Source: an uncultured Candidatus Saccharibacteria bacterium (GTDB lineage Bacteria; Patescibacteriota; Minisyncoccia; UBA6257; 2-01-FULL-56-20). Taken from it: a stretch of 64,000 nucleotides of DNA. A model generated the notes under the pieces. The model was given only the letters and a program-made list of their open reading frames with translations, made no database searches and was not told the DNA's origin. Location: contig CAYIAX010000001.1 in the NCBI GenBank assembly GCA_964361595.1, positions 98,128-162,127 on the forward strand, given 5' to 3'. How positions within the stretch are numbered: position 1 is the stretch's first letter; each line of letters starts with the position of its first letter. Of this stretch, positions 5,072-57,734 are shown in pieces. The position numbers were made by a program, and so were the translations under genes.

Positions 5072-6032
5072 GAATCTTGTTACGCCGCGAATCATAAGGC
5101 CCAAGGGTTATTTTAAAGCCTTGGCGCTTGATGTTGCTGCGGTTTTGGCGGCTTTCTTTATGAGTTACGCCTTCAAGCTTTATTTAGCAGAACAAGCATC
5201 TTTGACGTTGGTTATAAGCATTTTGGGTTTATGGGCATTGATTTCGATCTTGCGTACTTTGACGACAAGAACCCTGGGGCGGCGCGCGCTCGTGGCGCTG
5301 CTCCAAACGGCGGCCCTGCTTGTGATCTTTTTAGGAATACCGCTTCAATTCCTGCTCTTGATCGCCGCCGGTGTTTTCATTTTCCTCTTTTGGGGCGAAG
5401 CCAGCGCTTTCACGGAGCTTACGCAAAGCCTGGAGGTAAGATTTTTTCGCACGACCCGCGCGCATGTGAACAGGCTCGTCACCGCCGCGATTATTTTTAC
5501 GCTTTTTATTTATATCGCCACGAACAGCCAAAATCTGTTCGTTTCTGAAAAGAGCTTCACGAAGGTTTACGGCCTTACCGCAGAGGCCGTAAAAAACAGC
5601 TATCCGGATTTGCGGCTTGACTCTACTTTCCGCACGTTTGCCGAAAGCGTTGCAAGGCGGGAGCTTGCAAAACGTCCTGAATATGCTGAGCTAAATACCC
5701 CTATGAAGGAAGCGGCCCTGGCCAAAGCAACGGATGAATCTATGGCGCAGATCCGCGAGACACTCAAGCTTTCCGCAGGAGGGGATGAACAAATGAGTTC
5801 GGTATTCTACAACTTTTTCCGCAGCACGATGGAAGGCTGGCAGAAAACTTTCGGGAAGGCATTTGTCGCGATTTGGGTTATAATCCTTTTCCTGATCCTC
5901 AAGGGTTTTGGCACGCTTTTTTACCTGGGGGTTGGCCTCATCGGTTACTTGCTTTATCAGGGCTTGATCGTTTTAAATGTCATCCATATTATCGGAGAAA
6001 GCCGATCGCGCGAGGTCATAGAATTTACATAA
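5037..6032 (+). CDS. Hypothetical polytopic membrane protein inserted between dnaK and dnaJ
   Basis: 331 aa with several hydrophobic segments. It overlaps the dnaK 3' end by 35 nt, so the true start may be the internal Met near 5160. No recognisable domain. Confidence 0.45.
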
Positions 6033-6135
6033 TTTCGAAGCACGAAACTCGAAATCCTAAACAAATTCAAATGAGGATAACTAGAAAAGACCAAAAATGT
6101 TTCGGATTTCGATATTCGAATTTCGGATTTTAACC

Positions 6136-7465: not shown

Positions 7466-7538
7466 GCCTCCTTAGCTCAGTTGGTAGAGCAGCTCCCTTT
7501 TAAGGAGATGGTCGCAGGTTCGAATCCTGCAGGAGGCA
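7466..7538 (+). tRNA. tRNA-Lys (anticodon UUU)
   Basis: Cloverleaf: acceptor stem GCCTCCT/AGGAGGC, D-arm AGCTCAGTTGGTAGAGC, anticodon loop CTTTTAA (anticodon TTT), T-arm GCAGG-TTCGAAT-CCTGC. CCA is not encoded. Confidence 0.85.
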
Positions 7539-11197: not shown

Positions 11198-11357
11198 TTT
11201 TAAAATTCTTCGCATCAAACTTGTGAACCGCTATGCTATAGCATAGCGGTCAAAAAACGGCGAATTTTCGGGAATAATTTTAAGAACAAAAAAACCCGCC
11301 ACATGTGTGACGAGTCCGCGCACCTCCTTTCCGGGTGAACGTTGTTAATGATTGCAG

Positions 11358-12274: not shown

Positions 12275-13003
12275 GTGAAAAAAATGAAAAACAGTTTGCA
12301 GCTCACCGCGCTCCTGTGCGTGGTACTGCTTTTGGCCCCGATGTTTCCGTTGCCGGCCGTGGCCGCCGACGTCCCCGCTTGTCGTGTCGGTTCTAATCCG
12401 GTCGCTCCCGAGAAAGACGTCGACTGGGGTTCCGAGTGCATTGTCATGCTCAAGGAACCACGCGCGATCCAAACATATCAGCGCGGGGGGAAACCGGGCA
12501 GGACGTGTACCTTGGGGCTCGCCGATATTCTCGTGGTGGACAAAACCACGGGGAAGTTGAAGCGGGTTTTGGGTTGCAACAACCCACCCACGCCCGAGTA
12601 CGCGGCGTGGATTCCGGAGGGGAAAAAGATTTGCCAAAATCAGCCCTCGCCGGTGCCGCCGGGCACGCCAGCCGCACACATGCCCAAGATTCCGACCGCG
12701 TATTCTATCACGCACCTCGGGGAGGTGCGCGTGATTAACGAGGTCGACTTCAAAAATTCGCTCCAGGTCGAACTCGGCCCGACCACACTCCGCGCGATCG
12801 ACTCGTTGGCCGAGACATACAGGAAGGGTCATGAGAAGCGCGGCCTCTCGACCGGCGCGAAAGCGGGGATTGGCGCCGGCCTCGCAGCTCTTGTCGGTGG
12901 CATCGTGTATGCTGCTACCCGAGGCAAGGGGAGCAACACGACCAACATCTACAATCAGAACCCGCCCGGAGGCACACCGCCTCGTCCGCCGGGCAACAAC
13001 TGA
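12275..13003 (+). CDS. Hypothetical secreted protein with a C-terminal hydrophobic anchor (GC-rich island)
   Basis: N-terminal signal peptide (MKKMKNSLQLTALLCVVLLLAPMFPLPAVAA), several Cys, a C-terminal GIGAGLAALVGGIVYAA segment, and a Pro-rich tail. Confidence 0.5.
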   Translation: MKKMKNSLQLTALLCVVLLLAPMFPLPAVAADVPACRVGSNPVAPEKDVDWGSECIVMLKEPRAIQTYQRGGKPGRTCTLGLADILVVDKTTGKLKRVLGCNNPPTPEYAAWIPEGKKICQNQPSPVPPGTPAAHMPKIPTAYSITHLGEVRVINEVDFKNSLQVELGPTTLRAIDSLAETYRKGHEKRGLSTGAKAGIGAGLAALVGGIVYAATRGKGSNTTNIYNQNPPGGTPPRPPGNN

Positions 13004-13023: not shown

Positions 13024-13070
13024 GTCCGCGCGGCGTCACACAATGTGCACGCCGCTTTTTATTTTCATTT
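13024..13070 (+). terminator. Rho-independent terminator of 12275-13003, with the hairpin GCGGCGT...ACGCCGC followed by TTTTTATTTT
   Basis: A 7-bp GC stem followed by a T-run. Confidence 0.55.
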
Positions 13071-13195
13071 ACCAGAATATCTCGCCGCTTTGCGGCGAGT
13101 CATAAATAGCAGAGTGAAAATAACCCTGAGCCGAGTCGAAGGGTTACTATGCGTAGATACCGTAGCGCTTGCGGTGCTATAATTTATTTTCGCGA
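13046..13195 (+). ncRNA. Copy 1 of a two-copy structured element (candidate ncRNA or cis-RNA). Its paralog is at 45712-45885.
   Basis: About 80% identical to 45712-45885. The shared stems are ttattttca/gtgaaaataa and aaccct/agggtt, the latter with a variable loop. There is a terminal GC hairpin around cgcttgcgg. Confidence 0.4.
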
Positions 13196-13411
13196 AGCAA
13201 AAATATCTCGCTTGTCCGCCGTAACTTTAGTGAAGGCGGGAGCATTGTCGAGGGATTTCCTTGGAAGCGAAAATATTCAACGTCCGATGTCCCCGATATG
13301 TAATTTTTTGACATCGGATGCCCATGCGCTCGGAAGAATTTTGATTTTAGCGGACTTGACATTGTGCAATTCCGGTTTGGCCGACTTGACAAGGGTGGGG
13401 AAAGCCTACTA

Positions 13412-13440
13412 TTGACATGTTGCGGACAGTATGATAAGAT
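13412..13440 (+). promoter_or_regulatory. Sigma70-like promoter of the giant surface protein. TTGACA is followed by a 17-nt spacer and TAAGAT. Two further TTGACA boxes lie just upstream.
   Basis: TTGACA at 13412-13417 and TAAGAT at 13435-13440. Confidence 0.45.
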
Positions 13441-19258: not shown

Positions 19259-19288
19259 AAAATTATACTACAATTGTAGTATAATTTT
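19259..19288. terminator. Perfect 30-bp palindrome AAAATTATACTACAATTGTAGTATAATTTT. It probably acts as a bidirectional terminator between convergent genes.
   Basis: An A-run on the 5' side, a T-run on the 3' side, and a perfect hairpin. The core CTACAATTGTAGTATAA recurs at 34040-34056. Confidence 0.55.
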
Positions 19289-19343
19289 AGTAACTCGAGA
19301 TTTAGCTGAACTGAAAATAAAAGACGCGATGTAGAACACCGCG

Positions 19344-20000
19344 TCACTTCTCCTCTACGATGAACGTAACCGCGTAGCGGATCTGGATTTGGAATCCGCG
19401 CTGCGGGGGTTCCGGCGGAGGCGGTTGCGGCAAGCGCTGCAGCCAGAGTTCAAGGTCTCCCCACCGGCTCTTCAGCGTGCCGGTCAAGAATGGCCGGTGC
19501 TGCCAGGCTTGGTCCTTGCCCGGATCGTAGGCGCCGTAGCCGCCGCCGAGCTTGAACCGCTTGAAGTCGTATTCCAACTTCGCGCGCTCGACGACTTGCT
19601 GGAAGTTTCCAGCGCGGTTCACCGGCAGGTAGGGAAAGTACACCGCCTCGCCGCCGAGCCGAGGCGTAAGCGTATACTTTACCTTCGTCCACGGTTGGAC
19701 ATACCTGGCGCTTTTCGCGTCCGGTCCCATCGCTTGGACGAAGTACTCCTCGTGCACGATCTTCACGTGCTTGGAATTGAAGAGCACTCCGCCCCCGCCG
19801 ATCGAGAGTTCTTGATAGCGATTATTGAACTTGATGTAGACAATATCCGGCGCCGTCCACCTGCCGCAATTCTGGTTGAACTCCAGCATCCGGTAAGTGG
19901 TTTTGTTGCGGACGCCCCACCGGAGCGTGAGGTCGTTCAGTGTTTGCCCCACAGCGATTGTGGGGAAAAGGAGTAGTACTGCAAAAATTGCTCTCACCAC
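19344..20000 (-). CDS. Hypothetical secreted protein (GC-rich patch)
   Basis: Signal peptide MVRAIFAVLLLFPTIAVGQ, and a PPPPEPP tract near the C-terminus. The antisense ORF at 19389-19976 is rejected as a shadow ORF. Confidence 0.45.
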   Translation of the reverse strand: MVRAIFAVLLLFPTIAVGQTLNDLTLRWGVRNKTTYRMLEFNQNCGRWTAPDIVYIKFNNRYQELSIGGGGVLFNSKHVKIVHEEYFVQAMGPDAKSARYVQPWTKVKYTLTPRLGGEAVYFPYLPVNRAGNFQQVVERAKLEYDFKRFKLGGGYGAYDPGKDQAWQHRPFLTGTLKSRWGDLELWLQRLPQPPPPEPPQRGFQIQIRYAVTFIVEEK

Positions 20001-20149
20001 ACACCTCGCAAAGCTGGCTAAACTATAAAACTAAATGTTTACAAAGTCAAACGAAAAATCTAGAATCTTGCTACCAAATACGAAATCCGGATACGAATAT
20101 ACTAATTCGTATATTTGTAATAAATTTGTATTTCGTAGCCCTGTTAGCT

Positions 20150-22690: not shown

Positions 22691-22766
22691 CTACGAAATT
22701 ACGAATTTTTTGTGAATATACGAATTTATATATTTTAGTATATTTGTACCCTTTCGTATTTCGTAG
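22691..22766. repeat. AT-rich inverted-repeat element (CTACGAAATTACGAA ... TTCGTATTTCGTAG). Related copies are at 20077-20138 and 35453-35487.
   Basis: 14-15-bp terminal inverted repeats flank ~45 nt of AT-rich sequence. The TTCGTATTTCGTAG terminus is shared by all three copies. Confidence 0.5.
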
Positions 22767-22769
22767 CGA

Positions 22770-27673: not shown

Positions 27674-30001
27674 ATGACTGCTTTCCCCTCGGTTCTAGTT
27701 ATTTTCGGCGCCACTGGTGATTTAGCGAGGCGCAAGCTCATCCCTGCGCTTTATCATTTGCACAGGAAAAAGCTTTTACCGCCGCTTTTCCAGATCGTGG
27801 CTTTCTCGCGCCGAGAACTTACAACCGAAGCGTTCCAGGAAATTGCGCGCGAAGCGGTCAAAAAAATTCCCGAAAGCACTCCCGCGGAGACAGAATCATT
27901 TTTGCGGCTCTTCGTTTACATCCAAGGATTTTTCGACCGGAAAACCGGCTATAAGCACTTGGCCGAATTCCTGGGATTTAAGGATAACGAGTGGCAAAAA
28001 TGCTCGAATAAGCTTTTTTATCTCGCGGTCCCTCCGACCTATTACAAAAAAGTTTTTGCCCAGCTTGCGGCCTCGCGGCTCACTGAACCTTGTCCGCCGG
28101 AAGAAGGCTGGACGCGCGTCGCGGTGGAAAAGCCCTTTGGCAAAGATTTGAAGACCGCCGAAGACCTGGACAAGATGCTGGGGCGGCTCTTTAAGGAAGA
28201 CCAGATCTACCGAATCGATCATTATTTAGGCAAAGAGACGATCCAAAACATCCTCGCATTCCGATTTTCCAACTCATTTCTCGATCCTGCTTGGAACAAT
28301 AAATCCGTTCAAGGCATCCAGGTGAGATTTTTGGAAAAATTGGGGCTTGAGGGCCGCGGGGAATTCTATGACGGCGTGGGCGCTTTGCGTGACGTCGGTC
28401 AAAACCACCTTCTGCAGATGCTAGCCTTAATTACCATGCGCAATCCGGGCGTGTTTGATGCGAATGCGGTGCGTCATGCCCGCGCAGAAATATTAAAAGC
28501 TTTGCGTCCGCTCACGAAGCGAAACGTGAACGCGCAGATCTTGAAGGGGCAGTATCAAGGATTCCGGGCAGAAAAGAATATCTCGACGAATTCGCGGACC
28601 GAAACTTATTTCCGGATCAAAACTTTCATTGATCTACCCGAATGGTCTGGCGTGCCGATCCTGCTTGAAGGCGGGAAAGCGCAGGATGTGAATGCCGTGG
28701 ACATCAGCGTTGTTTTCAGGCATAAAATGCCCTGTCTCTGTGTAGGCAAAAAACATTCGCAGAATATTTTGCGTTATGAAGTCCAGCCGCAGGAGCGCAT
28801 TTCGACCTCATTTTGGGTCAAGCAGCCTGGAACCGAAATGCAGATCGAGGAAAAGGATTTCGCTTTTGATTACAAACAAGCTTTTGCCGGGGCGAATATT
28901 TTTGATGCTTATGAGCGTTTACTCATCGATGCGTTTGCGGGCAATCAGACTCTTTTTGTCAGCACGGAAGAAATTATGGCAAGCTGGAAGTTCGTCGATT
29001 CCGTGGAAACCGCTTGGAAGAATTCGGAACTCTTGGCCTACAAAACAGGTTCAGCCGAAGCGCGCAAGGCCGTTTTCCCGGAGGCTGAAATCGGCAAGAC
29101 GATCGGCATGGTCGGTTTGGGTAAAATGGGCAAAAATCTCGCTTTGCATTTGCGTGAGCAGGGCTGGCAGGTCACGGGTTATGATCCGGCGGCTAAATTA
29201 CCGGAGATAAAAATGGCCAAAAATTTGAGCGAACTTACGCGTTCGTTGCCGCAACCCCGCGTGATTTGGCTGATGTTGCCGGCTGGCGCTGGTACGGAAG
29301 CAGGTAAGTTTAAAGAGACTCCGACTGACGCGGTTTTAAAAGAACTCATTCAGTTTTTGGCAAAAGGCGATATCGTGATCGACGGCGGCAATTCTTTTTA
29401 TGAAACTACCGTGCGCCGGGCGGCATTATTCAAAAAACACGGGATTAATTTCTTGGATGTCGGAGTTTCGGGCGGTCCGCAGGGCGCGCGCGCAGGCGCA
29501 TCCTTGATGATCGGAGGCGATGCAAAAGCGTTTACTGCAGTCGAAGAGCTCTTTCGCGATCTGGCCGTCCCGGGCGGATATGTTCACTTAGGGAAGTCAG
29601 GAGCGGGCCATTTTACGAAAATGGTGCATAATGGAATTGAGTACGGAATGATGCAGGCGATTGCCGAAGGCTTCGCCATTATGAAGCAATCGCCCTTTGA
29701 GCTTGATCTGCGCAAAGTGGCGGATATTTATAACCACGGCAGCGTGATCGAATCCCGATTGATCGGCTGGCTCGAAAAAGCCTTACGCGAGCACGGAGAG
29801 AATCTAGAAAAGGTTTCCGGCACCGTGGGGCACTTGGGCGAAGGCGAATGGACCGTGAAAACCGCCAAGAAACTCAAGGTTCCTGTATCGGCTATTGAGA
29901 CCGCTTTCAAGTTCCGTATGCAATCCAAGCGTAACCCGAGTTATATCGGCAAAATTCTTTCGGCCTTGCGGAACCAGTTCGGCGGACACAGCGTTAATTA
30001 A
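27674..30001 (+). CDS. zwf-gnd: Fused glucose-6-phosphate 1-dehydrogenase (Zwf, ~470 aa) and short-form 6-phosphogluconate dehydrogenase (Gnd-like, ~300 aa)
   Basis: N-terminus has VIFGATGDLARRKL, RIDHYLGKE and the Zwf C-terminal YKTGSA(E)... pattern. The C-terminus has IGMVGLGKMGKNLA (Rossmann fold), GGNSFY and VHNGIEYGMMQAIAEGF (6PGDH). A single continuous ORF of 775 aa. Confidence 0.85.
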   Translation: MTAFPSVLVIFGATGDLARRKLIPALYHLHRKKLLPPLFQIVAFSRRELTTEAFQEIAREAVKKIPESTPAETESFLRLFVYIQGFFDRKTGYKHLAEFLGFKDNEWQKCSNKLFYLAVPPTYYKKVFAQLAASRLTEPCPPEEGWTRVAVEKPFGKDLKTAEDLDKMLGRLFKEDQIYRIDHYLGKETIQNILAFRFSNSFLDPAWNNKSVQGIQVRFLEKLGLEGRGEFYDGVGALRDVGQNHLLQMLALITMRNPGVFDANAVRHARAEILKALRPLTKRNVNAQILKGQYQGFRAEKNISTNSRTETYFRIKTFIDLPEWSGVPILLEGGKAQDVNAVDISVVFRHKMPCLCVGKKHSQNILRYEVQPQERISTSFWVKQPGTEMQIEEKDFAFDYKQAFAGANIFDAYERLLIDAFAGNQTLFVSTEEIMASWKFVDSVETAWKNSELLAYKTGSAEARKAVFPEAEIGKTIGMVGLGKMGKNLALHLREQGWQVTGYDPAAKLPEIKMAKNLSELTRSLPQPRVIWLMLPAGAGTEAGKFKETPTDAVLKELIQFLAKGDIVIDGGNSFYETTVRRAALFKKHGINFLDVGVSGGPQGARAGASLMIGGDAKAFTAVEELFRDLAVPGGYVHLGKSGAGHFTKMVHNGIEYGMMQAIAEGFAIMKQSPFELDLRKVADIYNHGSVIESRLIGWLEKALREHGENLEKVSGTVGHLGEGEWTVKTAKKLKVPVSAIETAFKFRMQSKRNPSYIGKILSALRNQFGGHSVN

Positions 30002-30154
30002 TCTAAAAACCGAAGCACGAAGCACGAAGCACGAAATTCGAAACAAATTTAAAATGAAAAAAGCAAATAAAAAAATTAAAAAAATTCCGGATTTCCTAGC
30101 CTCGACTTGCCGTCGAGGCGAGACGGGCGATATTCGGATTTCGAATTTCTGCTT

Positions 30155-32270: not shown

Positions 32271-32591
32271 ATGACTATTGACGAATTTCGCGCAGTCGAT
32301 TTGCGCGTGGCCACAATCCTTGAAGCCAGCCGCGTGGAGGGTTCGGATAAACTTGTGGCCTTGAAAATCACGGTCGGCGAGACGGAGCGCGAGCTTCTGG
32401 CCGGCATCGGCAAGGCCTATGAGCCGGGCGAGTTAATCGGCAAGCAAATCGTCGTCGTTTACAACCTTGACCCTAGAATAATGATGGGCCGGGAAAGCCA
32501 AGGGATGCTTCTGGCCGCTTCCGGGCCCGACGGCAAGCCAGTTCTACTTGTGCCCGAAAAAGAAGTCGAACCAGGAACACGCATAAATTAA
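32271..32591 (+). CDS. tRNA-binding protein of the CsaA/Trbp111 family (Myf domain)
   Basis: 106 aa. VDLRVATILEASRVEGSDKL...ESQGMLLAA is the OB-fold tRNA-binding domain. Confidence 0.75.
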   Translation: MTIDEFRAVDLRVATILEASRVEGSDKLVALKITVGETERELLAGIGKAYEPGELIGKQIVVVYNLDPRIMMGRESQGMLLAASGPDGKPVLLVPEKEVEPGTRIN

Positions 32592-32629
32592 ATTCGAAGC
32601 ACGAAGCACGAAATCCGAAACAAATTCGA

Positions 32630-32983
32630 ATGACAGAAGTTCATAAAAAATACGACCTGGAAAAACGAACTTTTGAGTTCGCAAAAAGAGTTAGGGATTT
32701 TGTAAGTAAACTTCCGAGGACCGTATCTGCTATCGAGGACTGTAAGCAGCTTGTGCGTTCATCTGGTTCTGTCGGTGCAAATTATATTGAGGCCAATGAA
32801 TCTTTGAGTAAAAAAGATTTTTTACTCCGAATTAAAATTTGCCGAAAAGAAGCCAAGGAAAGTAAATATTGGCTTGAACTTCTTAATGTCGACAAGAATT
32901 TACTAGCTGAACACAGCTATTTAATAAAAGAAGCAACTGAACTAATGATGATTTTCAGTGCTATTATGAGGAAGTCGCAATAA
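32630..32983 (+). CDS. Four-helix-bundle protein (23S rRNA intervening-sequence protein family)
   Basis: 117 aa. ...FEFAKRVRDFVSKLP...VRSSGSVGANYIEANES.SKKDFLLRIKICRKEAKESKYWLELL matches TIGR02436/PF05635. Confidence 0.75.
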   Translation: MTEVHKKYDLEKRTFEFAKRVRDFVSKLPRTVSAIEDCKQLVRSSGSVGANYIEANESLSKKDFLLRIKICRKEAKESKYWLELLNVDKNLLAEHSYLIKEATELMMIFSAIMRKSQ

Positions 32984-33024
32984 GTTTCGGATTTCGATAT
33001 TCGAATTTCGAATTTAAGAAAACT

Positions 33025-34019: not shown

Positions 34020-34132
34020 AAAACTTCTCACTCCCATCATGCTACAATTGTAGTATAACGGGAGTGAAGTGAGAGCGAGATGAAAGCTTATGGGAAATCG
34101 AGTAATAAATCGGCCGGCTTAGCTGCGATTGC

Positions 34133-35440: not shown

Positions 35441-35722
35441 TGTCGACTATGTAAATTCGTATATTCGTAATAATTCGTATTTCGTAGATTAAAGAAAACC
35501 CGCCCGAGGAAAAGAGGGGCGGGATGATGCGTCCAGACTATCCAAGTCTGGAGCGGGCGCGGAACATCCGCATGCAAATCCGGAAGGGTAAGATGTACTT
35601 ATAGAGTGCGTGGAGCCGCAGGGTGACCACGGCGCCGCGCGGGTAGACCTTTCGCTCGTTTTTCGTAGCAGTCTCCTTCCAGGAGTTTCTATAAATAGCG
35701 TATCACGTTGTAGAATAACGTC

Positions 35723-37200: not shown

Positions 37201-37457
37201 GGTGCGAGTGGCCCCGGAACGCGAGCAAGTTCGTAACGCGGATGAATAAATTTATTTTTTATGCACATATTTCAGGTGCTGTGCTATAGCACAGCACCAT
37301 GATTCATCATAGCACCGGCAAAGTGAGGTTCGCGGTGTTTGTTCGATTAAAAATCTCGAAAAAAACCTGTTGGCCGTTTTCATTTTCACCATATAACCGA
37401 ACGAGTTTACTATCCTAAATGACGATCGTAATTAGGGATAGTAAATCAGGTTATTTT

Positions 37458-39203: not shown

Positions 39204-39284
39204 TGCGTACTTTTAAAAATTTGAAATTCGAATATCGAAATCCGAAACAATTTTCGAATTTCGTACTTCGTGCTTCGAATTTGT

Positions 39285-40565
39285 TTAGCCATCTTGCCCG
39301 GTCGGGGTCACAAGGTTGGCGTTAACCGAAAAAATCACGGTCTTATCGAAAAATTCTTTTCCCGTAGAGGGATCTTTCCAGGAGCCCACAATTGAACCGG
39401 AGGAAGTTCCGAACTCCGCCACGGAAGCATCCAGGCGGGCGCTAAACACCCCCGGCCTTGTAAACGAGCCGATTAATCCCACAACTTGCCAAAGAGTCCC
39501 CTCGGTAACGGTTTTTTTACTGCCGTCGCTCATCTTGACTACAGCTGTGAATGTGATCGTATCACCCTCCTTGACTCCAGTTAAGGGGTTCGCGGTCGAA
39601 ATTACAAGCGAGACCGCGGTCGGGCCAGAACCGCCGCCAGAGGTCGGGCTAATTACCTTTGTTGAGGTTGTGACTTTAACTTCGATGTTGGTGTTAACTT
39701 CAACTTGCGTACTTGTTACGGCATTTTCCGTACTTTTTTGCAGTTCCTGAAGTTTCAAAAACGGTTCATGAATTATTTTCTGCAGTTCCAAGCGCAGCTG
39801 CGGCCCGCTTAATCCTTGAGCTTCCAACTGCTTTATAAGTTCATCAAGTTTTTTGTCCTCGGCTTCGAAACGCACCACCCAGGATTCTTTAAGCAGGGAA
39901 GCAGGTGCGGCTTTTGCCGCGAAAGTAAGAGTGCCTGCGGAAACGGATGAAACATCAGCGTCTTTGAATTCCAGAACTAAACCGGGCGAAACTAACGCTT
40001 CCTTATCTTGAATTTTTTGGTCGCGCGGGTGGACGGAAACGGAATTTTGCGAGCCTAAGACAGTGGATTTTCCATTAACATAGGCGACGCCGAAGGCGGT
40101 GCCGCGCACCGTTGCCGCCACGTTCGAAGTTTTCACCTCCCATTCGGAGTCGGCGGTAACAAGCGTTAAAATCTTGGACCAGACGCGGCCGGCGCCCAAA
40201 GTAATCCGCACAATCAAACGCTCGTTTTTCCGGTCATAGGATGCTTCATCCACCGTAAGCACGGTGCCGGAATCAATTCTCGCAACGGAACCATCGGGGA
40301 AATAAAGATTTGCCAATCCCTTGGTATCGGTCGTGAGCGTAAGTTTGCCTTTGATTTCGTCCCCGGTCTTTAGCGTAGTTGTTGCACCGGAGGCATTAGT
40401 TGCAGTAACTTTATCTGCCAGCACCTCAATCCAGGGATTTGTTACGGCGCCTTCGCTTACGCCGCTTAACTGGGGGTTTTCACCTTCCTCGCCGCCCGCA
40501 AAATACAAGTAAGCTCCAATTAAGATAACTACGACCAGGAGAATAAGGCCGATGATTTTTTTCAT
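39285..40565 (-). CDS. FecR-domain membrane-anchored protein (paired with the CHASE2 cyclase)
   Basis: N-terminal TM, then a FecR-like region (...SVARIDSGTVLTV...VRITLGAGRVW...VKTSNVAATVRGTAFGV), then a Thr/Ser/Val-rich beta-rich tail. Confidence 0.65.
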   Translation of the reverse strand: MKKIIGLILLVVVILIGAYLYFAGGEEGENPQLSGVSEGAVTNPWIEVLADKVTATNASGATTTLKTGDEIKGKLTLTTDTKGLANLYFPDGSVARIDSGTVLTVDEASYDRKNERLIVRITLGAGRVWSKILTLVTADSEWEVKTSNVAATVRGTAFGVAYVNGKSTVLGSQNSVSVHPRDQKIQDKEALVSPGLVLEFKDADVSSVSAGTLTFAAKAAPASLLKESWVVRFEAEDKKLDELIKQLEAQGLSGPQLRLELQKIIHEPFLKLQELQKSTENAVTSTQVEVNTNIEVKVTTSTKVISPTSGGGSGPTAVSLVISTANPLTGVKEGDTITFTAVVKMSDGSKKTVTEGTLWQVVGLIGSFTRPGVFSARLDASVAEFGTSSGSIVGSWKDPSTGKEFFDKTVIFSVNANLVTPTGQDG

Positions 40566-44427: not shown

Positions 44428-44467
44428 CACACCACGATAATTAGCCATGGCTAATTATCGTGGTGTG
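44428..44467. promoter_or_regulatory. Perfect 40-bp palindrome ACACCACGATAATTAGCCATGGCTAATTATCGTGGTGT, 58 nt upstream of the dinB start. Candidate operator.
   Basis: The two 20-bp arms are exact reverse complements with no spacer. There is no T-run after it, so it is not a typical terminator. Confidence 0.45.
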
Positions 44468-44524
44468 AGGCCGCCACGCTGTGCCGTTCTTTCTTATATC
44501 CGCGTCGAGCTTTATTATTTGAAA

Positions 44525-45613
44525 ATGCGAATTATTGGACATCTCGACATGGACGCTTTTTTTGCTGCGGTTGAAGAGCGGGACAATCCGCGTTTCAAAG
44601 ACAAACCGCTCGTAGTGGGCGCCGATCCGCAGGATGGTAAGGGGCGCGGAGTAGTCTCCACCGCCAATTACAAAGCCAGGGAATATGGCATTCGCTCGGC
44701 CATGCCAATAACGCAGGCCTGGCGTTTGGCTAAAGAAGCCGAAGCAAAAGGGAAGCCACCGGCAATTTTTTTGGGCGTGAGCGGTGGGAAATATTCTGAA
44801 GTTTCAAGTCGCATCGTGAGCATTGTGCGTCGGCATGTTCCGGTGATTGAAGAGGCGAGCATTGATGAAATGTATTTGGATCTTAGTTTTACGAAAACAC
44901 ATGAAGCTGCTCGCAAGTTGGCGCTCAAAATTAAAGCGGAGATTTGGCGAGAAGAAAAACTCACGGCTTCTGTGGGCATCGGCCCTAATAAATTGGTTGC
45001 TAAAATCGCTTCTGACCGAGAAAAGCCGGATGGACTTACCGTAGTCGAGAAGAAAGATATTGAAGAGTTTTTAGAACTGCTGCCTCTGCGGGCCATTCCT
45101 AGTATTGGACCGAAGACGGAAATACAACTGCGCGCCCGCGGTTATCTGACCGTTAAGGATGCGAAAAAATTGAGCAAAGCACAACTTGTTCAAATGTTCC
45201 ATAGCTGGGGCGGCGATCTTTATGAGAAATTGCGCGGACAGAACGATAGTCCATTGGAAACAAATTGGATACCTAAATCTATCGGCGAGCAGGAAACATT
45301 TGCCGAGGACACTATTGATGCCGTCCAAATTTCGGCGAAAGTAAAAGAACTTGCGGAAGAAGTTTTTGAAAGATTCAGCGCCAGCCAATTCAAATCCTGG
45401 CGGACAGTGGTTTTGACTGTAAGATTTGCTGATTTTGAAACAAAAAGCCGGGCCAAAACCCTGGCTTTACCCGAGCGCACCGTGGCGGAGCTCGCGTTTG
45501 CAGCCGCCACAATACTGATGCCATTTTTGGATGCTCGCGAGAATCCGCGGCGCAAGAAGATCCGCCTCCTAGGCGTGCGGATCGAAAAATTGTCCAATGG
45601 CCGTATGCGTTGA
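44525..45613 (+). CDS. dinB: DNA polymerase IV (DinB, Y-family)
   Basis: MRIIGHLDMDAFFAAVEERDNP and SIDEMYLDL motifs. The Met at 44525 aligns with canonical DinB N-termini. The upstream ATG at 44447 lies inside the palindrome. Confidence 0.9.
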   Translation: MRIIGHLDMDAFFAAVEERDNPRFKDKPLVVGADPQDGKGRGVVSTANYKAREYGIRSAMPITQAWRLAKEAEAKGKPPAIFLGVSGGKYSEVSSRIVSIVRRHVPVIEEASIDEMYLDLSFTKTHEAARKLALKIKAEIWREEKLTASVGIGPNKLVAKIASDREKPDGLTVVEKKDIEEFLELLPLRAIPSIGPKTEIQLRARGYLTVKDAKKLSKAQLVQMFHSWGGDLYEKLRGQNDSPLETNWIPKSIGEQETFAEDTIDAVQISAKVKELAEEVFERFSASQFKSWRTVVLTVRFADFETKSRAKTLALPERTVAELAFAAATILMPFLDARENPRRKKIRLLGVRIEKLSNGRMR

Positions 45614-45711
45614 GTTTTATTTATGAATTTTTTGATAAGCTAGGTACGCCGTTTCCCGTGCTTAAAGATAGCGACCTTGACCTCAAGCGCAACGCTATCC
45701 CATCGACCTGC

Positions 45712-45885
45712 GCTTTTTTATTTTCACTTACCAGAATACCCCGCCGCTCTGCGGCGAAGATGAATAGTGGAGTGAAAATAACCCTGCCGCCCGGCTTAGC
45801 TGGGCGAGCCTCGCCACAGGCGGGAGTCGGGTCGAAGGGTTACCTGTATAGATGCCGCACCGCTTGCGGTGCGGTAATTCATCTG
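45712..45885 (+). ncRNA. Copy 2 of the two-copy structured element (see 13046-13195). It carries a ~40-nt insertion in one hairpin loop.
   Basis: Conserved blocks TTTTTATTTTCAyTTACCAGAATA, CGCCGCTyTGCGGCGA, GAGTGAAAATAACCCTG and GTCGAAGGGTTAC. The insertion sits inside the aaccct/agggtt hairpin loop. Confidence 0.4.
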
Positions 45886-45962
45886 CTTTTTGACTTTTGC
45901 TGTGCTCGAGGCTATTTTGAATACACCCCCTGCGGCAAACCGATGGGGACTTTGCGCGTTTT

Positions 45963-48089
45963 ATGCCAAATCATTTCCAGCTAAAATCGAATTTTAAACC
46001 GGCTGGCGATCAACCGCGAGCGATCGATGCGCTTGTTTCGGGTTTGGAAAAAAATTTGAAACATCAAACTTTGCTTGGCGTAACCGGTTCGGGCAAGACC
46101 TTTACGATCGCGAATGTAATCGCCAAGGTCAACAAACCCGCGCTCGTGATTGCGCATAATAAAACATTGGCGGCCCAGCTCACCAATGAGTTTAAGGAGT
46201 TTTTTCCGCATAATTCGGTCAACTATTTCGTTTCCTATTACGATTATTACCAACCGGAAGCATATTTACCGACCACCGACACTTATATCGGCAAAGAGGC
46301 TTTGATTAACGAGGAAATTGATAAACTGCGCCATGCGGCGACGACCGCGCTCTTAACGCGCCGGGACGTGATCGTGGTCGCTTCAGTCTCTTGCATTTAT
46401 GGTTTGGGCGCGCCGGAGATATATGCGCAAAATATTTTCCATTTCCAAACGGGGGATTTAGTGAAGCGCGAGGAACTTGCCCGCAAACTGATCGAACTTC
46501 AATTTAAGCGAACCAATGCGGATTTGAAGCGGGGGACCTATCGCTTGCGCGGCGACACCTGGGAAATTATGCCGCCCGACCGGGAGGTAATTTACACTTT
46601 TGACCTTAAGGGTGGAGTGATCGAAAAAATCTACGAAATTGATCCCGTGCAGGGCTTCCGGCCCGGCAAAACTCCGACTGTACAGGAAATCTTCATTGCG
46701 CCCGCCAAGCACTTCATCACGCTTGTACCCGAGCGCGAACGGGCCATTAAGGCAATCAAAGCCGAGCTCAAGGAGCGGCTTAAATACTTCGAGGAGCACA
46801 AGAAGTTTCTCGAAGCCGAACGGCTGGAACGGCGCACCAAATTCGACATCGCCATGATCCGCGCCGTTGGCTATTGCCACGGCATCGAAAACTATTCCCG
46901 GCACCTTTCCGGCCGCGGCCAGGGCGAACCGCCCGCCACGCTTTTGGATTATTTTTTTACCCGCCGACTTGGCCACCATAGCTTCAGCGCTGGTGGAAGC
47001 CTTGGCGAAGGCGGGCCTTCGCAGCGCGGAAGCGTGCAGACGAAACGCGATCGTCAGGAAGAGCTGGACTTCCTGACCATAATTGACGAATCGCACGTTA
47101 CTGTGCCGCAGATCTCCGGCATGTTCGCAGGCGATGCTTCGCGCAAGCGTACTTTGATTGAATACGGTTTCCGTTTGCCTTCCGCGGCCGACAACCGTCC
47201 GCTCACCTTCAGAGAATTCGAGGCGAGGGCAGGCCGGACAATTTATACTTCGGCGACGCCAGGGTCTTACGAAAAGAAGGTCAGCAAGCAAACCGTAGAA
47301 CAGATAATCCGCCCCACCGGTTTGGTGGATCCTAAAATCACCGTGCGGCCGGCGCGCGGACAGATTGACGACCTTTTGCCGCGCATTGAAGGACGGGTAA
47401 GGGAGAAAGAGCGGGTGCTTGTAACCACGCTTACAAAGCGCATGGCCGAGGATTTAAGCGCGTATCTCGAGGAGCTCAAGATAAAGGTCACATATCTCCA
47501 CAGCGACGTAAAAACTCTGGATCGGATCAGGATTTTGACTTTATTACGGAAAGGGTCCGCCAGCGGCGGATTCGACGTTTTGGTCGGCGTAAACCTGTTG
47601 CGCGAAGGCTTGGACCTGCCGGAAGTTTCATTAGTCGCGATTCTTGACGCCGATAAGGAGGGGTTCCTGCGGAGCGAAACGTCGCTGATCCAGACCATTG
47701 GCCGGGCGGCCAGGAACGTGGCCGGCGAAGTTTTGATTTACGCCGACCAAATCACAGGCTCGATTGAGCGGGCGCTTAAAGAAACCGAACGGCGCCGTAA
47801 GCTCCAGTTGGAATACAATAAAAAACACGGGATTACGCCCAAAACCATCGTCAAGGCTATTACTGATATTCTGCCGAATGTGGACGAGATCCTGAAACTG
47901 GAGCTAAAACCAGTGCCGATATCAAAAGCCGCCCTCGAGGAGATGATTGCGGCGAAGGACAGGGAGATGAAGGCGGCGGCGAAACGCCTGGATTTCGAAT
48001 TGGCAGCACTTTTACGGGACGAGCTAAAATTGCTTTATAAAAAACAAGCCCAAAAGACAAAACCCAAGGAGCATTCAACTAAAGACTAA
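45963..48089 (+). CDS. uvrB: Excinuclease ABC subunit B
   Basis: 708 aa. Walker A GVTGSGKTFT, helicase motifs, the beta-hairpin, and the C-terminal UvrC-binding coiled coil. Confidence 0.95.
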   Translation: MPNHFQLKSNFKPAGDQPRAIDALVSGLEKNLKHQTLLGVTGSGKTFTIANVIAKVNKPALVIAHNKTLAAQLTNEFKEFFPHNSVNYFVSYYDYYQPEAYLPTTDTYIGKEALINEEIDKLRHAATTALLTRRDVIVVASVSCIYGLGAPEIYAQNIFHFQTGDLVKREELARKLIELQFKRTNADLKRGTYRLRGDTWEIMPPDREVIYTFDLKGGVIEKIYEIDPVQGFRPGKTPTVQEIFIAPAKHFITLVPERERAIKAIKAELKERLKYFEEHKKFLEAERLERRTKFDIAMIRAVGYCHGIENYSRHLSGRGQGEPPATLLDYFFTRRLGHHSFSAGGSLGEGGPSQRGSVQTKRDRQEELDFLTIIDESHVTVPQISGMFAGDASRKRTLIEYGFRLPSAADNRPLTFREFEARAGRTIYTSATPGSYEKKVSKQTVEQIIRPTGLVDPKITVRPARGQIDDLLPRIEGRVREKERVLVTTLTKRMAEDLSAYLEELKIKVTYLHSDVKTLDRIRILTLLRKGSASGGFDVLVGVNLLREGLDLPEVSLVAILDADKEGFLRSETSLIQTIGRAARNVAGEVLIYADQITGSIERALKETERRRKLQLEYNKKHGITPKTIVKAITDILPNVDEILKLELKPVPISKAALEEMIAAKDREMKAAAKRLDFELAALLRDELKLLYKKQAQKTKPKEHSTKD

Positions 48090-48448
48090 ACACTTTATGC
48101 ACCTTTCGTGGTAATTTATCCACCGCTTCTTAACCTTTTTGCGTTGACTTTTTCCGAGGATGTTCAACAATGGAATTAGGTTGGCGCGGCGAATGGATTG
48201 GCACTTCCGATCAAATAATATAAATACCTTTTAGCAGTCCCATCGCGCGGGTTCGAGGACCCCCGGTAAGGCTCAATCGTGGTATCCTGCGGAATCCCAA
48301 CTCCATTACAAGCGCCGGACCTACTTATGGGAAGGTGAGGTTTCCGTAGGAATAGCTACGGTGCTTTGCCTTGTCTGGCTTGTTGCGTGTTATATCGTCA
48401 TAGTCATTCTTATCGTATCGTAATTGTCATTGTATAAGTCTGGGAGAA

Positions 48449-48478
48449 GGCGCCTGCGGGCGTTTTTTTTGGTTTTTT
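48449..48478 (+). terminator. Intrinsic terminator: a short GC hairpin followed by T8. It closes a ~350-nt ORF-free region downstream of uvrB.
   Basis: ggcgcctgcgggcgtttttttt. Confidence 0.45.
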
Positions 48479-48534
48479 GGCCTGTGGATAAACTGGCCTT
48501 GTCTACAGAATACATGGTCGGGTAGAATGTAAAC

Positions 48535-49185
48535 GTGGAAACACCAGTAACTGCAAGGCAAAAAGAGCTTTTGGGGCTTATTTATGACTATCTTAAGGAA
48601 ACTGGATATTCCCCGACGATAAGCGAAATGAGGGAAAGGCTTAAGGTTGCTTCCAATCAATCCATCCTTGATCTTCTTAAAAAACTGGAAAGTGGGCAGC
48701 TGATAAAAAAAACCGAATCTGCCGCGCGGAGTATTTCCATATTGCCTTTGGCATTCCAGCTTTTATCAAGGCCGCCCCTGGTTGAATTTATGGGCGCTAC
48801 GAGCGCCGGTTCTCCGATCGGAAGCATAGAAATAACGGGAGAATGGCAAGTCCTGCCTTCTTTCCAGGGCGAGAAAGTTTCGAAGCTCAAAAACGATGTT
48901 TTTCTTCTGAAAATCCACGGCGATTCGATGATTAACGCCGGAATTGATAATGAAGACATAGTTTTGGTCCAAAAACAGAAAGAGTTTATTTCCGGAGATA
49001 TTGTGCTCGCGCAAATAGGGGATGAGTCAACCATAAAAAGATTTATTTCCGACGACAAGCCCCCGTATGTTTATTTGAAGCCGGAAAATCCGAAATACCA
49101 AAATATTCCCTTTACTGAAGAGATGCGGCTGGAAGGAAAGGTCATCTCGATTTCCAAAAACGGCTACTGGCAGCCGCTAAAATAA
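48535..49185 (+). CDS. lexA: LexA repressor (S24 peptidase)
   Basis: N-terminal winged HTH (LTARQKELL...GYSPTISEM). Catalytic Ser in GDSM and catalytic Lys in STIKRF. Confidence 0.85.
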   Translation: METPVTARQKELLGLIYDYLKETGYSPTISEMRERLKVASNQSILDLLKKLESGQLIKKTESAARSISILPLAFQLLSRPPLVEFMGATSAGSPIGSIEITGEWQVLPSFQGEKVSKLKNDVFLLKIHGDSMINAGIDNEDIVLVQKQKEFISGDIVLAQIGDESTIKRFISDDKPPYVYLKPENPKYQNIPFTEEMRLEGKVISISKNGYWQPLK

Positions 49186-54914: not shown

Positions 54915-55016
54915 ACTGAATAGGCTATACTTACCTCGCGAGTGACCCACCCTGGTTCCCAACCGGTGGGAAATTAAGTTTTAAATTCGAAGCACTAAGC
55001 ACGAAATTCGAAATTT

Positions 55017-57734
55017 ATGCAGAACAAAATAGTTATCAAAGGGGCGAGGGAACACAACCTCAAGAACATCAACCTGGAGCTGCCGCGGGATAAAATGATT
55101 GTCTTTACCGGTCTTTCCGGTTCGGGCAAATCCAGCTTGGCGTTCGACACGATTTTTGCCGAAGGCCAGCGCCGCTACATCGAATCCTTATCCGCATACG
55201 CGCGGCAGTTTTTGGGCCGCTTGGACAAGCCGGATGTGGACGAAATCGAGGGGCTTTCGCCGGCAATTTCCATTGACCAAAAAAGCCATTCCTCGAATCC
55301 GCGCTCAACCGTGGCCACGATCACGGAAATTTACGATTACCTCCGTGTCCTTTTTGCCCGTTTGGGCAAACCCTACTGCCCCGAATGCGGCAAAGAAATC
55401 AAAAGCATGACCAACGAGGAAATCGTGGACGCGGTTATTGAAATCTCCAAGCAAAATGCTGCCGAGAAAAACCTAGTCATTCTCGCGCCCGCCGTGCGCG
55501 GTCGCAAAGGGGAGTATTACCAGATGCTTTACGACTTTTTAAACGCCGGCTTCAGGGAAGTGCGCGTGGATGGTAAGTTTTATCCCTTGCGCGAGCGGAT
55601 TGAACTTTCCCGTTACAAGCAGCACACGATTGAGCTTGTGATTGATCGCATCCCGCACGGGTTGGATTTTAGGCACAAAGATAACCGTCTGCGTTTGGCC
55701 GAAGCCATCGAAACTGCTTTGAAATACGGCAACGATGTGGTTACGATCCATATGATGGGTGATCATGCCGCCCCCAAGGGGGCGCCCGCTCCGACTCCCC
55801 GCTTCGCTCTCGCGAAGACGAGGCGAGGGAGACGAGGCGAGAGCCTCGCCCCGCAGCAAGCAGGGCGGGAAGTTTCTTTGTCGGCCAAATTCACTTGTCC
55901 GCAGGACGGATTTTCATTTCCTGAAATTGAGCCGCGGCTGTTCTCGTTCAATAGCCCTTATGGCGCATGTCCCGCCTGCCACGGTTTGGGCACAGAGGAA
56001 GTCTGGTCGGAAAAGATTTGTCCGGTTTGCCAAGGCAAGCGGTTGAAGCCGGAAGCCTTGAATGTTCTGATTGACGGAAAAAATATTGTAAGCGTAACGG
56101 CTTTTTCGATCGCCGCAGCCTTCGAATTTTTCGGCAAACTGCAGATAAAAAACGATATGCGCTTCCGCGAAGTGGCGGAAGTCCCGCTACGCGAAATCAA
56201 GAACCGGCTCAAATTCATGATTGACGTGGGCCTGGATTATTTAACGCTCGAAAGAAAAGCCGGAACGCTTTCCGGCGGTGAATCCCAGCGCATTCGCTTG
56301 GCTTCACAAATTGGCTCTCGTTTGGTCGGTACGCTCTATATTTTGGACGAGCCCACTATTGGCCTGCACCAGCGGGACAATGAAAAACTTATAAATACGC
56401 TGCATGAACTGCGTGATTTGGGCAACACGATTATTGTGGTTGAGCATGACGAAGAGACCATCCGTTCCTCGGATTACCTGGTGGATATCGGCCCTGGTGC
56501 AGGCGTACATGGCGGCAGGGTCATTGTGGCCGGGGAGATAAAGGAGTTATTAGCGACAAGCGACAAGCGACCCTCCTCCGCTAAAGCTTCCACCGGCGCC
56601 AAAGCTATGGCGGACAAGTCGGCGGGCAAGCAAGATAATGCAGCATTCAATGAATCACTGACGCTTGATTTTCTCAAGGGAAAGCGAGAAATTCCGGTCC
56701 CATCCGAACGCCGCAAAGTCGGCAAAAACCAGGCTTATTTGAAGATTAAAGGCGCGCGGGCCAACAATTTGAAAAACATTGATGTGGAAATTCCGTTGGG
56801 CAAACTGACCGCTGTTACCGGCGTGTCGGGTTCCGGCAAAAGCTCACTGGTTTACGATGTGCTTTATAAAACTCTGGCAAATAAATTTAACGGCGCCGCT
56901 TATAAAGCAGGCCAGCATGCCTCTATGCTCGGCACGGAATATATTAATCGCGTCATCAATATCGACCAATCTCCGATTGGCCGGACGCCGCGTTCGAACC
57001 CAGCTACCTATGTCGGCGCCTGGACGTTTATCCGCGAGTTATTCGCGGCCTCCGAAGATGCTCGCGTTCGCGGCTACAAGCCTGGCCGGTTCAGCTTTAA
57101 CGTGCCGGGCGGCCGCTGCGAGAATTGCGAAGGCCACGGCACAATCGCCATCGAAATGCATTTCCTGCCGACGGTTTATGTAACCTGCGAAATCTGCAAA
57201 GGCAAACGCTTTGATCGGGAAACGCTTGAAGTGGAATATAAAGAAAAAAATATTTATGAAATTTTGCGCATGACCGTGGAGGAAGCCGTAAAATTTTTTG
57301 ATGAAATTCCCTGGCTTTATGATCGCTTGAAAATTTTGGAGGAAGTCGGGTTGGGTTATGTGGAGCTGGGACAGTCGGCCACGACTTTGTCCGGCGGCGA
57401 GGCGCAGCGGATCAAGCTCTCCGCCGAGCTTGGCAAGCGCGATACCCGCCGCACGCTTTATCTTTTGGACGAACCGACTACGGGGCTGCATTTCGGCGAC
57501 GTGGAAAATCTGCTTAAGGTTTTGGATCGGCTGGTCGATCGCGGCAATACAATCGTTGTGATCGAGCATAATTTAGATGTCATCAAAAATGCGGATTGGG
57601 TAATCGATCTTGGCCCCGAAGGCGGGGATAAGGGCGGAAAAATTGTGGGAGCGGGAACACCGGAGGACATCGCCAAGCGCGCAGGCAGCTTTACGGGCGA
57701 ATATCTGAAGAAAGTGCTTCGCTCGCATAAATAA
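55017..57734 (+). CDS. uvrA: Excinuclease ABC subunit A
   Basis: 905 aa. Two ABC ATPase modules ([10 protein letters not shown]; [10 protein letters not shown]), signature LSGGE.QR repeated twice, zinc modules (CP.C...C..C), and two low-complexity insertions. Confidence 0.95.

Follow-up and report, generated by a model that had tools for sequence, protein, structure and literature searches.

A modular intergenic repeat placed behind terminator-like hairpins in a groundwater Patescibacteria genome

A short intergenic element, 140-200 nucleotides (nt) long, occurs twice in the 64,000 nt of DNA analysed here (the window: positions 98,128 to 162,127, forward strand, of contig CAYIAX010000001.1, assembly GCA_964361595.1, from an uncultured Candidatus Saccharibacteria bacterium). 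What is it? We favour the view that it is a lineage-specific, modular interspersed repeat, of the kind represented by miniature inverted-repeat transposable elements (MITEs), BOX elements and bacterial interspersed mosaic elements (BIMEs), and not a dedicated RNA gene; we put the probability of this at roughly 55%. We prefer it because the boundaries are sharp, the subfamilies lie within 85-94% identity, some modules are truncated or stand alone and the family is restricted to one genome, and also because the element has no promoter of its own, shows no covariation and has other intergenic repeat families alongside it. Its one unusual trait is a strict abutment to terminator hairpins, seen in five copies.

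Two copies in the window

A preliminary description of this DNA reported two look-alike intergenic segments and proposed that they represent a family of non-coding RNAs. The segments are real and both lie on the + strand, copy 1 at about 13054-13192 and copy 2 at about 45713-45887. Aligned with MAFFT, they have a mean column identity of 82% over 177 columns; blastn finds 86% identity over the first 73 nt (E = 3e-16) and 80% over 60 nt. Judged from the sequences, this similarity is far above chance. The true right end of copy 1 is probably close to 13206, about 10 nt past the end first given.

Every conserved block listed at that time is found in both copies. So are the inverted repeat TTATTTTCA(Y) / (R)TGAAAATAA, perfect over 9-11 bp, the inverted repeat AACCCT/AGGGTT and a further one, CTCGCCGC/GCGGCGAG. 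The insertion placed in the loop of the AACCCT/AGGGTT hairpin of copy 2 is indeed there, and measures 38 nt (45786-45823). The segments were also described as non-coding, and we agree. The 38-nt indel is not a multiple of three and breaks the reading frame, the short forms contain stop codons, and the overlapping open reading frames (ORFs), 13149-13415 and 45610-45984, exist but match nothing in Pfam; on these grounds a coding reading was rejected.

The flanking genes are as described. Copy 1 lies between ORF 12275-13003 (+ strand, unannotated, independently predicted by a gene caller) and the gene of a giant protein of 1581 amino acids (aa) with Big_2/fn3 domains. Copy 2 lies between dinB and uvrB. 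The guess that the DNA comes from the Candidate Phyla Radiation (CPR) fits as well, the best relatives of its UvrB being Liptonbacteria/Patescibacteria proteins of about 76% identity.

The element consists of a core, module A, with three helices (P1-P3); an optional 3' hairpin (P4) with a T-rich tail, module B; and a closing A/T hairpin (P5). The parts of the two window copies, all on the + strand, are as follows.

13030-13055, +: upstream hairpin GCGGCG...CGCCGC, outside the repeat; it ends ORF 12275-13003 (RNAfold, -16.2 kcal/mol)
13056-13153, +: copy 1, core module A, short form (97.9 bits with the five-copy covariance model R2)
13056-13066, +: T-run TTTTTATTTTC of copy 1, in module A
13061-13068 with 13114-13121, +: helix P1 of copy 1, in module A
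13081-13088 with 13092-13099, +: hairpin P2 of copy 1, in module A
13122-13127 with 13140-13145, +: hairpin P3 of copy 1 (AACCCT/AGGGTT), in module A
13154-13192, +: copy 1, module B, a hairpin (13162-13180) followed by AATTTATTTTCG; terminator-like by scan and by fold
13185-13206, +: copy 1, small A/T-rich hairpin P5, TATTTTCGC gaa GCAAAAATA, from inverted repeats
13412-13440, +: promoter-like TTGACA-17-TAAGAT for the giant surface protein, about 200 nt 3' of copy 1 and outside the repeat, from a scan
45685-45713, +: weak upstream hairpin AGCGCA...TGCGCT with a 17-nt loop, after dinB and outside the repeat (-7.3 kcal/mol)
45714-45848, +: copy 2, core module A, long form (150 bits with model R2)
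45714-45725, +: T-run of copy 2, in module A
45720-45727 with 45772-45779, +: helix P1 of copy 2, in module A
45742-45747 with 45751-45756, +: hairpin P2 of copy 2, in module A
45780-45785 with 45836-45841, +: hairpin P3 of copy 2, in module A
45786-45823, +: GC-rich 38-nt insertion of copy 2, two small hairpins in the P3 loop, marking the long-form subfamily (copies 2, 4 and 5)
45849-45886, +: copy 2, module B, the perfect hairpin CCGCACCG cttg CGGTGCGG (45855-45874) followed by TAATTCATCTGC, from the fold
45890-45918, +: promoter-like TTGACT-17-TATTTT for uvrB, 3' of copy 2 and outside the repeat, from a promoter scan

The last paired base of the hairpin at 13030-13055 immediately precedes the T-run of the repeat, and this hairpin has no homology to those 5' of the other copies. 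The promoter-like site at 13412-13440 is followed by an ATG at 13449. In copy 2 the sequence TAATTCATCTGC makes a poor U-tract, and the scan does not call a terminator there. The predicted folds contain the helices first described (P1, P2 and P3) and the terminal hairpin P4, which takes a different register in copy 1 and in copy 2. A direct reading of the sequence shows P2 (CGCCGCTCTGCGGCG) and P4 (CACCGCTTGCGGTG) to be alike. The motif TTATTTTC and its complement GAAAATAA occur four times, in the forward sense at the left end and in the tail of module B, and in the reverse sense as the 3' strand of P1 and in P5.

Further copies, and where the family is found

How many copies are there? The sample is a metagenome of Hainich groundwater (well H43, 0.1 µm fraction), and the same population holds three more core copies and one solo 3' module, which brings the family to at least five cores. 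With filters off, a two-copy covariance model found no third copy within the window. A pattern scan of a metagenome collection, in a stricter two-block form with two more bases, returned four stretches, all from the same Hainich H43 sample, one of them the locus of copy 1. Copies 5 and 6 came to light when the window was extended by 10 kb to the left and 6 kb to the right. The additional copies are these.

L041 7737-7879, +: copy 3, short form, 92% identical to copy 1
L042 8269-8076, -: copy 4, long form, 90-95% identical to copy 2
L043 6657-6528, - (the + strand of the window): copy 5, long form with a shortened 38-nt insertion, no module B
L045 9030-8992, -: copy 6, module B alone

Model R2, built from the five cores, recovers these five and no others from about 113 kb of the genome's own DNA, a density of about one per 20 kb. 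The link of copies 3 and 4 to the window genome rests on sample, on coverage (cov_4-5) and on tetranucleotide similarity (r = 0.97 and 0.91, respectively).

The copies are 85-94% identical and fall into a short-form and a long-form subfamily, without and with the 38-nt insertion, within which identity is 92% and about 94%. The modules occur independently: copy 5 lacks B, copy 6 is B alone, and the insertion may be present or absent. Module B is intact in copies 1, 2 and 4, in different registers, and decayed in copy 3. One hairpin of the insertion is symmetrically shortened in copy 5. The closing A/T hairpin follows in copies 1, 3 and 4, its equivalents being ATTTGTA/TACAAAT in copy 3 and TTATTTTTGCC/GGCAAAAATAA in copy 4. 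In this respect, five cores and one solo module spread over about 113 kb are what is expected of a MITE: multiple, dispersed, small non-coding copies with sharp boundaries.

Does the family extend beyond this population? Among 185,579 species genomes the pattern TTACCAGAATA-N(20-50)-GTGAAAATAA gave 31 matches in unrelated taxa. All are chance matches, because blastn shows that only the pattern words match. This collection apparently lacks the window's own genome, and exact-block scans of this kind would miss diverged homologs in which the blocks are not exact. The same two-block pattern has no match among the viral contigs of IMG/VR, and blastn none among phage and plasmid records. In 74 kb from three relatives, looked up through their UvrB homologs, model R2 with filters off found no core, where at equal density about three copies would be expected; nor is there dinB-uvrB synteny in these relatives. 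Literature searches on repeats or MITEs in Patescibacteria returned nothing relevant.

Placement and orientation

Where does the repeat begin? Alignments of four and of five copies show homology setting in at TTTTT(T)ATTTTC in every core, with an unrelated flank upstream. In copies 1, 3, 4 and 5 a GC-rich hairpin of -13.5 to -16.2 kcal/mol has its last paired base directly in front of the T-run; the hairpin before copy 2 is weak. (For copies 1 and 5, whose bulged upstream hairpins escaped a simple terminator scanner, RNAfold was used.) In these four copies, hairpin and T-run together have the predicted form of an intrinsic terminator, a GC-rich hairpin followed by a U-tract. The hairpins close genes read in the same direction as the repeat: ORF 12275-13003, dinB, and the genes of a 111-aa membrane protein, a 1139-aa PG_binding protein and a TSCPD protein. 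In copies 1 and 4 module B, too, has the predicted form of a terminator, a hairpin with a U-tract behind it. The ordinary terminators of this genome have varied T-tracts, unlike the single common T-run of the repeat.

On the 3' side, each of copies 1-4 is followed by a match to a sigma-70-like promoter that would serve the next gene; no promoter-like site was found downstream of copy 5. Since such a match follows at four of the five loci, the element appears to lie between a terminator and a promoter. The cis-leader role once entertained for it is therefore unlikely, as the promoter-like site of the next gene stands 3' of the element. The downstream genes are moreover unrelated in function, and a cis leader or riboswitch was rejected on both counts. 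Neighbouring genes as a whole are diverse: dinB and uvrB, surface proteins, an O-antigen ligase-like protein, Nramp and a small membrane protein.

All five cores and the solo module B are oriented as the gene upstream. Is it transcription or replication that sets the orientation? Copy 3 sits on the C-rich strand of a contig whose genes mostly run the opposite way, and yet it follows its own upstream gene; the other copies lie on G-rich strands. We conclude that orientation tracks transcription and not the replication strand, which argues against a single-strand mechanism of the IS200/IS605 type. Two explanations fit the orientation rule: insertions may be selected when they rebuild a terminator, or the mechanism may read a hairpin and the T's after it.

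Two further sites bear on terminators in this genome. At 19311-19345 of the window (- strand) ORF 19344-20000 (-) has a terminator made up of a hairpin and TCTTTTATTTTCAG, nearly the left-end T-tract of the element, with no element after it; the site could be an unoccupied, target-like site or a coincidence. The hairpin CCCAGCT(T/A)AGCTGGG occurs as a stand-alone terminator stem 5' of copy 4 (L042 8272-8290) and again at L042 3264-3281, and lies within the 38-nt insertion of the long forms (window 45791-45807). The insertion may thus be a captured hairpin of the terminator type.

How might an interspersed repeat come to be arranged in this way? Upon insertion, the T-run of the repeat would supply the U-tract that completes the terminator upstream, and the module B of intact copies would add a second, back-up hairpin of terminator-like form. 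Such insertions would be harmless, or mildly useful as a tandem terminator or a 3'-end structure. Copies may then be tolerated only after hairpins because the T-run and module B would serve termination. Copies in other positions or orientations would be selected against; alternatively, the insertion machinery itself would read the hairpin and the T's. If RNA is made from the element, it would form the end of read-through transcripts. Candidate routes of spread are recombination at T-tracts and the action in trans of a transposase.

Several points weigh against the repeat interpretation. Terminal inverted repeats are not definable with confidence, the candidates being short, A/T-rich and of low complexity. 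In copies 1, 3 and 4 the left end TTTTTATTTTC has a complement in the 3' arm of P5 (9-11 nt, 89-100%), but this low-complexity A/T motif also occurs twice inside the element. Nor is a target-site duplication definable with confidence. The sequence TTTATTTTC stands at both ends of copy 1 and, at eight of nine positions, in copy 4; its presence in every copy, the solo module B included, suggests that it belongs to the element and is not a duplicated target. The T-tract was rejected as a target-site duplication, the right-hand T-run being present in the solo module B too. A Pfam search of the window and the flanking loci, about 113 kb, found no transposase, integrase or reverse transcriptase domain. 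There is no empty site for comparison, the closest genomes being only about 76% identical in UvrB. The assignment of copies 3 and 4 by tetranucleotides is suggestive and does not discriminate, as a relative (L034) scores 0.95. The rules of placement and orientation rest on five copies only. Finally, of eight single changes in stems, three lead to a G-U wobble on the + strand only, which weakly favours constraint on an RNA, and three others to C-A. With neither inverted termini nor target duplications established, the element cannot be classed as a MITE.

Is the element an RNA?

If the copies retain the same helices, might they belong instead to a family of structured RNAs, either a multi-copy small RNA (sRNA) or a module of read-through 3' untranslated regions, in which P1-P3 form a functional fold and module B a terminator? 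We regard this as possible but rather unlikely. The same helices can form in all five core copies, and the indels fall in loops, as with the 38-nt insertion and the symmetric shortening of a hairpin in copy 5. The orientation always follows transcription, and the terminator-like form of module B, with its U-tract, in copies 1 and 4 is what such an RNA would have at its 3' end.

Database comparison speaks the other way. At gathering thresholds Rfam finds in the whole window a single tRNA (7466-7538) and nothing at the element. Even at E <= 10 no family matches either copy, the hits being noise: mir-8364 at 15-16 bits (threshold 67) and sar at 17.6 bits (threshold 43), the latter located outside the element. 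Folding energy is unremarkable for copy 1, the short form, against shuffled sequence (z = -1.65) and strong for copy 2, the long form (z = -4.8); the strong value probably derives from the GC-rich hairpins of the insertion.

To what extent are the stems themselves conserved? The preliminary description spoke of stem-preserving changes between the two window copies. These come down to a C-to-U change in the first helix, turning a C-G into a U-G pair, the insertion within a loop and a terminal hairpin folded in another register; no pair has changed on both sides between these copies. Over 37 pairs in the alignment of five copies, 95.5% of cells form standard pairs, as is to be expected for recent copies of a sequence that contains palindromes. 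A change on both sides is seen in one pair only, at an indel-affected column of an insertion hairpin. Covariation is no higher than chance, 163 of 500 shuffles reaching the observed score, with the low power of five close copies. Stems and loops are equally substituted: 15 of 72 paired columns (21%) and 12 of 52 unpaired columns (23%) vary (Fisher p = 0.83). The G-U pairs on the + strand arise in P1 (copies 1 and 4) and in P2 (copy 5), in keeping with an RNA; the C-A mismatches on the same strand arise in P2 (copies 3 and 5) and in P3 (copy 5), and count against one. Beyond the inherited palindromes, then, the data speak neither for nor against constraint on an RNA.

Nor does the element have the signals of an independent sRNA gene. 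No promoter is predicted inside the core, in a scan for sigma-70-type sites only, and none is conserved 5' of the element, the sequence before the T-run being unrelated among the copies. A terminator-like module B is intact in copies 1, 2 and 4 only; at three of the six loci the module is missing, decayed or solo. Outside its own population the element was not found in the 74 kb from relatives or in any collection searched.

What remains of the proposed RNA family is that the sequence is non-coding, that the copies have predicted stems in common and that the family has further members; Rfam, covariation, homologs beyond the genome's own population and a promoter were all negative. An RNA-level role as the transcribed 3' tail of read-through transcripts retains some probability, since the helices are retained, the indels fall in loops and the orientation follows transcription. 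The evidence comes closer to what the preliminary description itself had named as the contrary case, a simple duplicated terminator or MITE in which no structure is conserved. For annotation the lesson is that multi-copy intergenic segments of one genome that look paired should not be taken for families of non-coding RNA without covariation across species.

A site on DNA, or the ends of an island?

Could the element act as DNA? Blocks such as TTACCAGAATA and the hairpins P2 and P4, which resemble one another, might form a platform for a regulator or a nucleoid protein, or an insulator, and a position always between a terminator and the next promoter would suit such a role. Copy 1 adds a promoter-like match in module B, TAGATA-18-TGcTATAAT, at 10 of 12 consensus positions. 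We give this idea little credence. The neighbouring genes are functionally unrelated, TTACCAGAATA is not invariant (CTACCAGAATG in copy 5), and 140-200 nt is long for an operator. The -10 match is lost in copies 2, 4 and 6 (GGTAAT or CGTAAT), and a promoter within module B was rejected, the match being good in copy 1 alone.

It is hardly credible that the two window copies stem from one event, as attL and attR of an integrated island or as an intergenic segmental duplication. The two stand 32.6 kb apart as direct repeats of one orientation, but are only 82% identical, and three more copies lie outside the interval. Within it lie housekeeping genes (a G6PD-6PGD fusion, PGI, an ABC transporter, FKBP and an HhH-GPD glycosylase) and no integrase, and its GC content is not distinct. 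In view of the gene content between the copies and the extra copies elsewhere, att sites of a prophage or island were rejected. An integron attC was likewise rejected: no R'/R'' core sites were seen by eye, and there is no cassette array.

Other repeats and genes of the same genome

Other intergenic repeat families of the genome combine with that of the element. A perfect 22-bp palindrome, GTGCTATGCTATAGCATAGCAC, is found repeatedly between genes, in several cases convergent ones (window 11230-11247 and 37276-37297; L043 6378-6401, 7289-7310, 10677-10696 and 11168-11189; L045 9058-9079). It adjoins copies 5 and 6 of the element, and may be a unit like the repetitive extragenic palindromic (REP) sequences, a bidirectional terminator or an operator. 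Six sites carry low-complexity intergenic repeats, in both orientations, that are made of TTCGAAAT / CGAAGCACGAA units (6026-6131, 30006-30074, 32588-32650, 32972-33017, 39216-39288 and 54981-55026). Another A/T-rich intergenic family, of about 75 nt with the core CGAATATACTAATTCGTATATTTGTAATAA and 75-91% identity, is found in the window at 20064-20139, 22691-22767 and 35444-35487, and at about 3170-3244 of L043. The palindrome CTACAATTGTAG, within ATTATACTACAATTGTAGTATAAT, stands at two intergenic sites (19262-19310 and 34036-34084) and looks like an operator overlapping a -10 box.

A 72-nt inverted repeat of about 80% identity lies inside two coding regions, at 46945-47015 (uvrB) and at 56571-56642 (ORF 55017-57734). 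UvrB has 708 aa here and 655-680 aa in most close relatives, a length that points to a possible in-frame insertion of a repeat, like the palindromic elements of Rickettsia. The genes dinB and uvrB are clustered with a LexA-like gene (LexA_DNA_bind, Peptidase_S24), directly 3' of uvrB, at 44447-49185 (L001 9000-13738); judged from the sequence, it is a candidate SOS-type cluster for a member of the Patescibacteria. Behind the LexA-like gene comes one for a type IIG-like methyltransferase/restriction protein (N6_Mtase, Eco57I). ORF 27674-30001 encodes 775 aa with glucose-6-phosphate dehydrogenase and 6-phosphogluconate dehydrogenase domains, and appears to be a fusion of two enzymes of the pentose-phosphate pathway.

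The genomes of Patescibacteria (CPR) are small, and the usual account of them is that repeats and mobile DNA are scarce. A density of about one structured interspersed repeat per 20 kb, with other families besides, would show that streamlined genomes still host proliferating non-coding elements. The feature most worth following is the strict placement behind a hairpin, in the direction of transcription. Should this rule hold genome-wide, it would mean either that a hairpin directs insertion or that only insertions that rebuild a terminator are tolerated.

Comparison with known systems

How does the element compare with systems already described? The BOX elements of Streptococcus pneumoniae are modular repeats of the composition boxA-boxB-boxC. 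Like them, the element is a small, non-coding, dispersed intergenic repeat whose modules may be present, absent or inserted, with strong predicted hairpins, a narrow host range and no transposase of its own. The sequences themselves are not similar, and only five or six copies have been found here so far. A fixed position and orientation with respect to an upstream terminator hairpin marks the present element, whereas it is not defining for BOX.

REP units are 20-40 nt long and associated with RAYT transposases, and have been proposed to affect 3'-end stability and termination. With the REP, BIME and REPIN sequences of proteobacteria the element shares palindromic units at the 3' ends of genes and mosaics with other repeat motifs. 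It differs in its unit of 140-200 nt with three to five helices, and Pfam finds no Y1_Tnp (RAYT) domain in the 113 kb. The 22-bp palindrome family fits REP better than the element does.

MITEs are defined by clear terminal inverted repeats and target-site duplications. In size, non-coding nature, sharp boundaries, subfamilies of 85-94% identity, truncated copies and confinement to one lineage, the element resembles MITEs such as Correia/NEMIS, RUP and ERIC-like sequences. It differs in that neither terminal inverted repeats nor target-site duplications are demonstrable, and no parent insertion sequence was found in the 113 kb. An IS200/IS605-derived element (PATE) might be suspected from the likeness of P2 and P4, but copy 3 lies on a different strand from the others (C-rich against G-rich), and neither TnpA nor TnpB was found by Pfam over the same DNA.

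Class C group II introns insert after intrinsic terminators. The element, too, begins right behind a terminator stem-loop and runs in the direction of the transcript that ends there, and its internal GUGAAAAUAA is complementary to the junction UUAUUUUCAC, loosely like the pairing of exon- and intron-binding sites (EBS/IBS). It is far too small, however, at 140-200 nt against at least several hundred, starts with UUUUUAUUUUC and not GUGYG, and has its T-run inside the repeat and not in the flank; no reverse transcriptase was seen, and no Rfam group II intron model, that of domain V/VI included, matched at E <= 10. Could it nonetheless be an active element, or RNA module, that recognizes intrinsic terminators and inserts at the 3' foot of the hairpin in the direction of transcription? 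The choice of target might then be guided by pairing of GUGAAAAUAA with the T-tract UUAUUUUCAC, as with EBS/IBS or a guide and its target. Alternatively, it would be a domesticated RNA that extends terminators and controls read-through or 3'-end stability. We hold this pair of ideas to be improbable; if the first were true, a streamlined CPR genome would harbour a terminator-homing mobile element much smaller than the class C introns.

The remaining comparison is with intrinsic terminators themselves. The upstream hairpin and the T-run have their canonical form, as does module B in copies 1 and 4. What sets the element apart is that about 95-135 nt of conserved, structured sequence lie between the two terminator-like parts.

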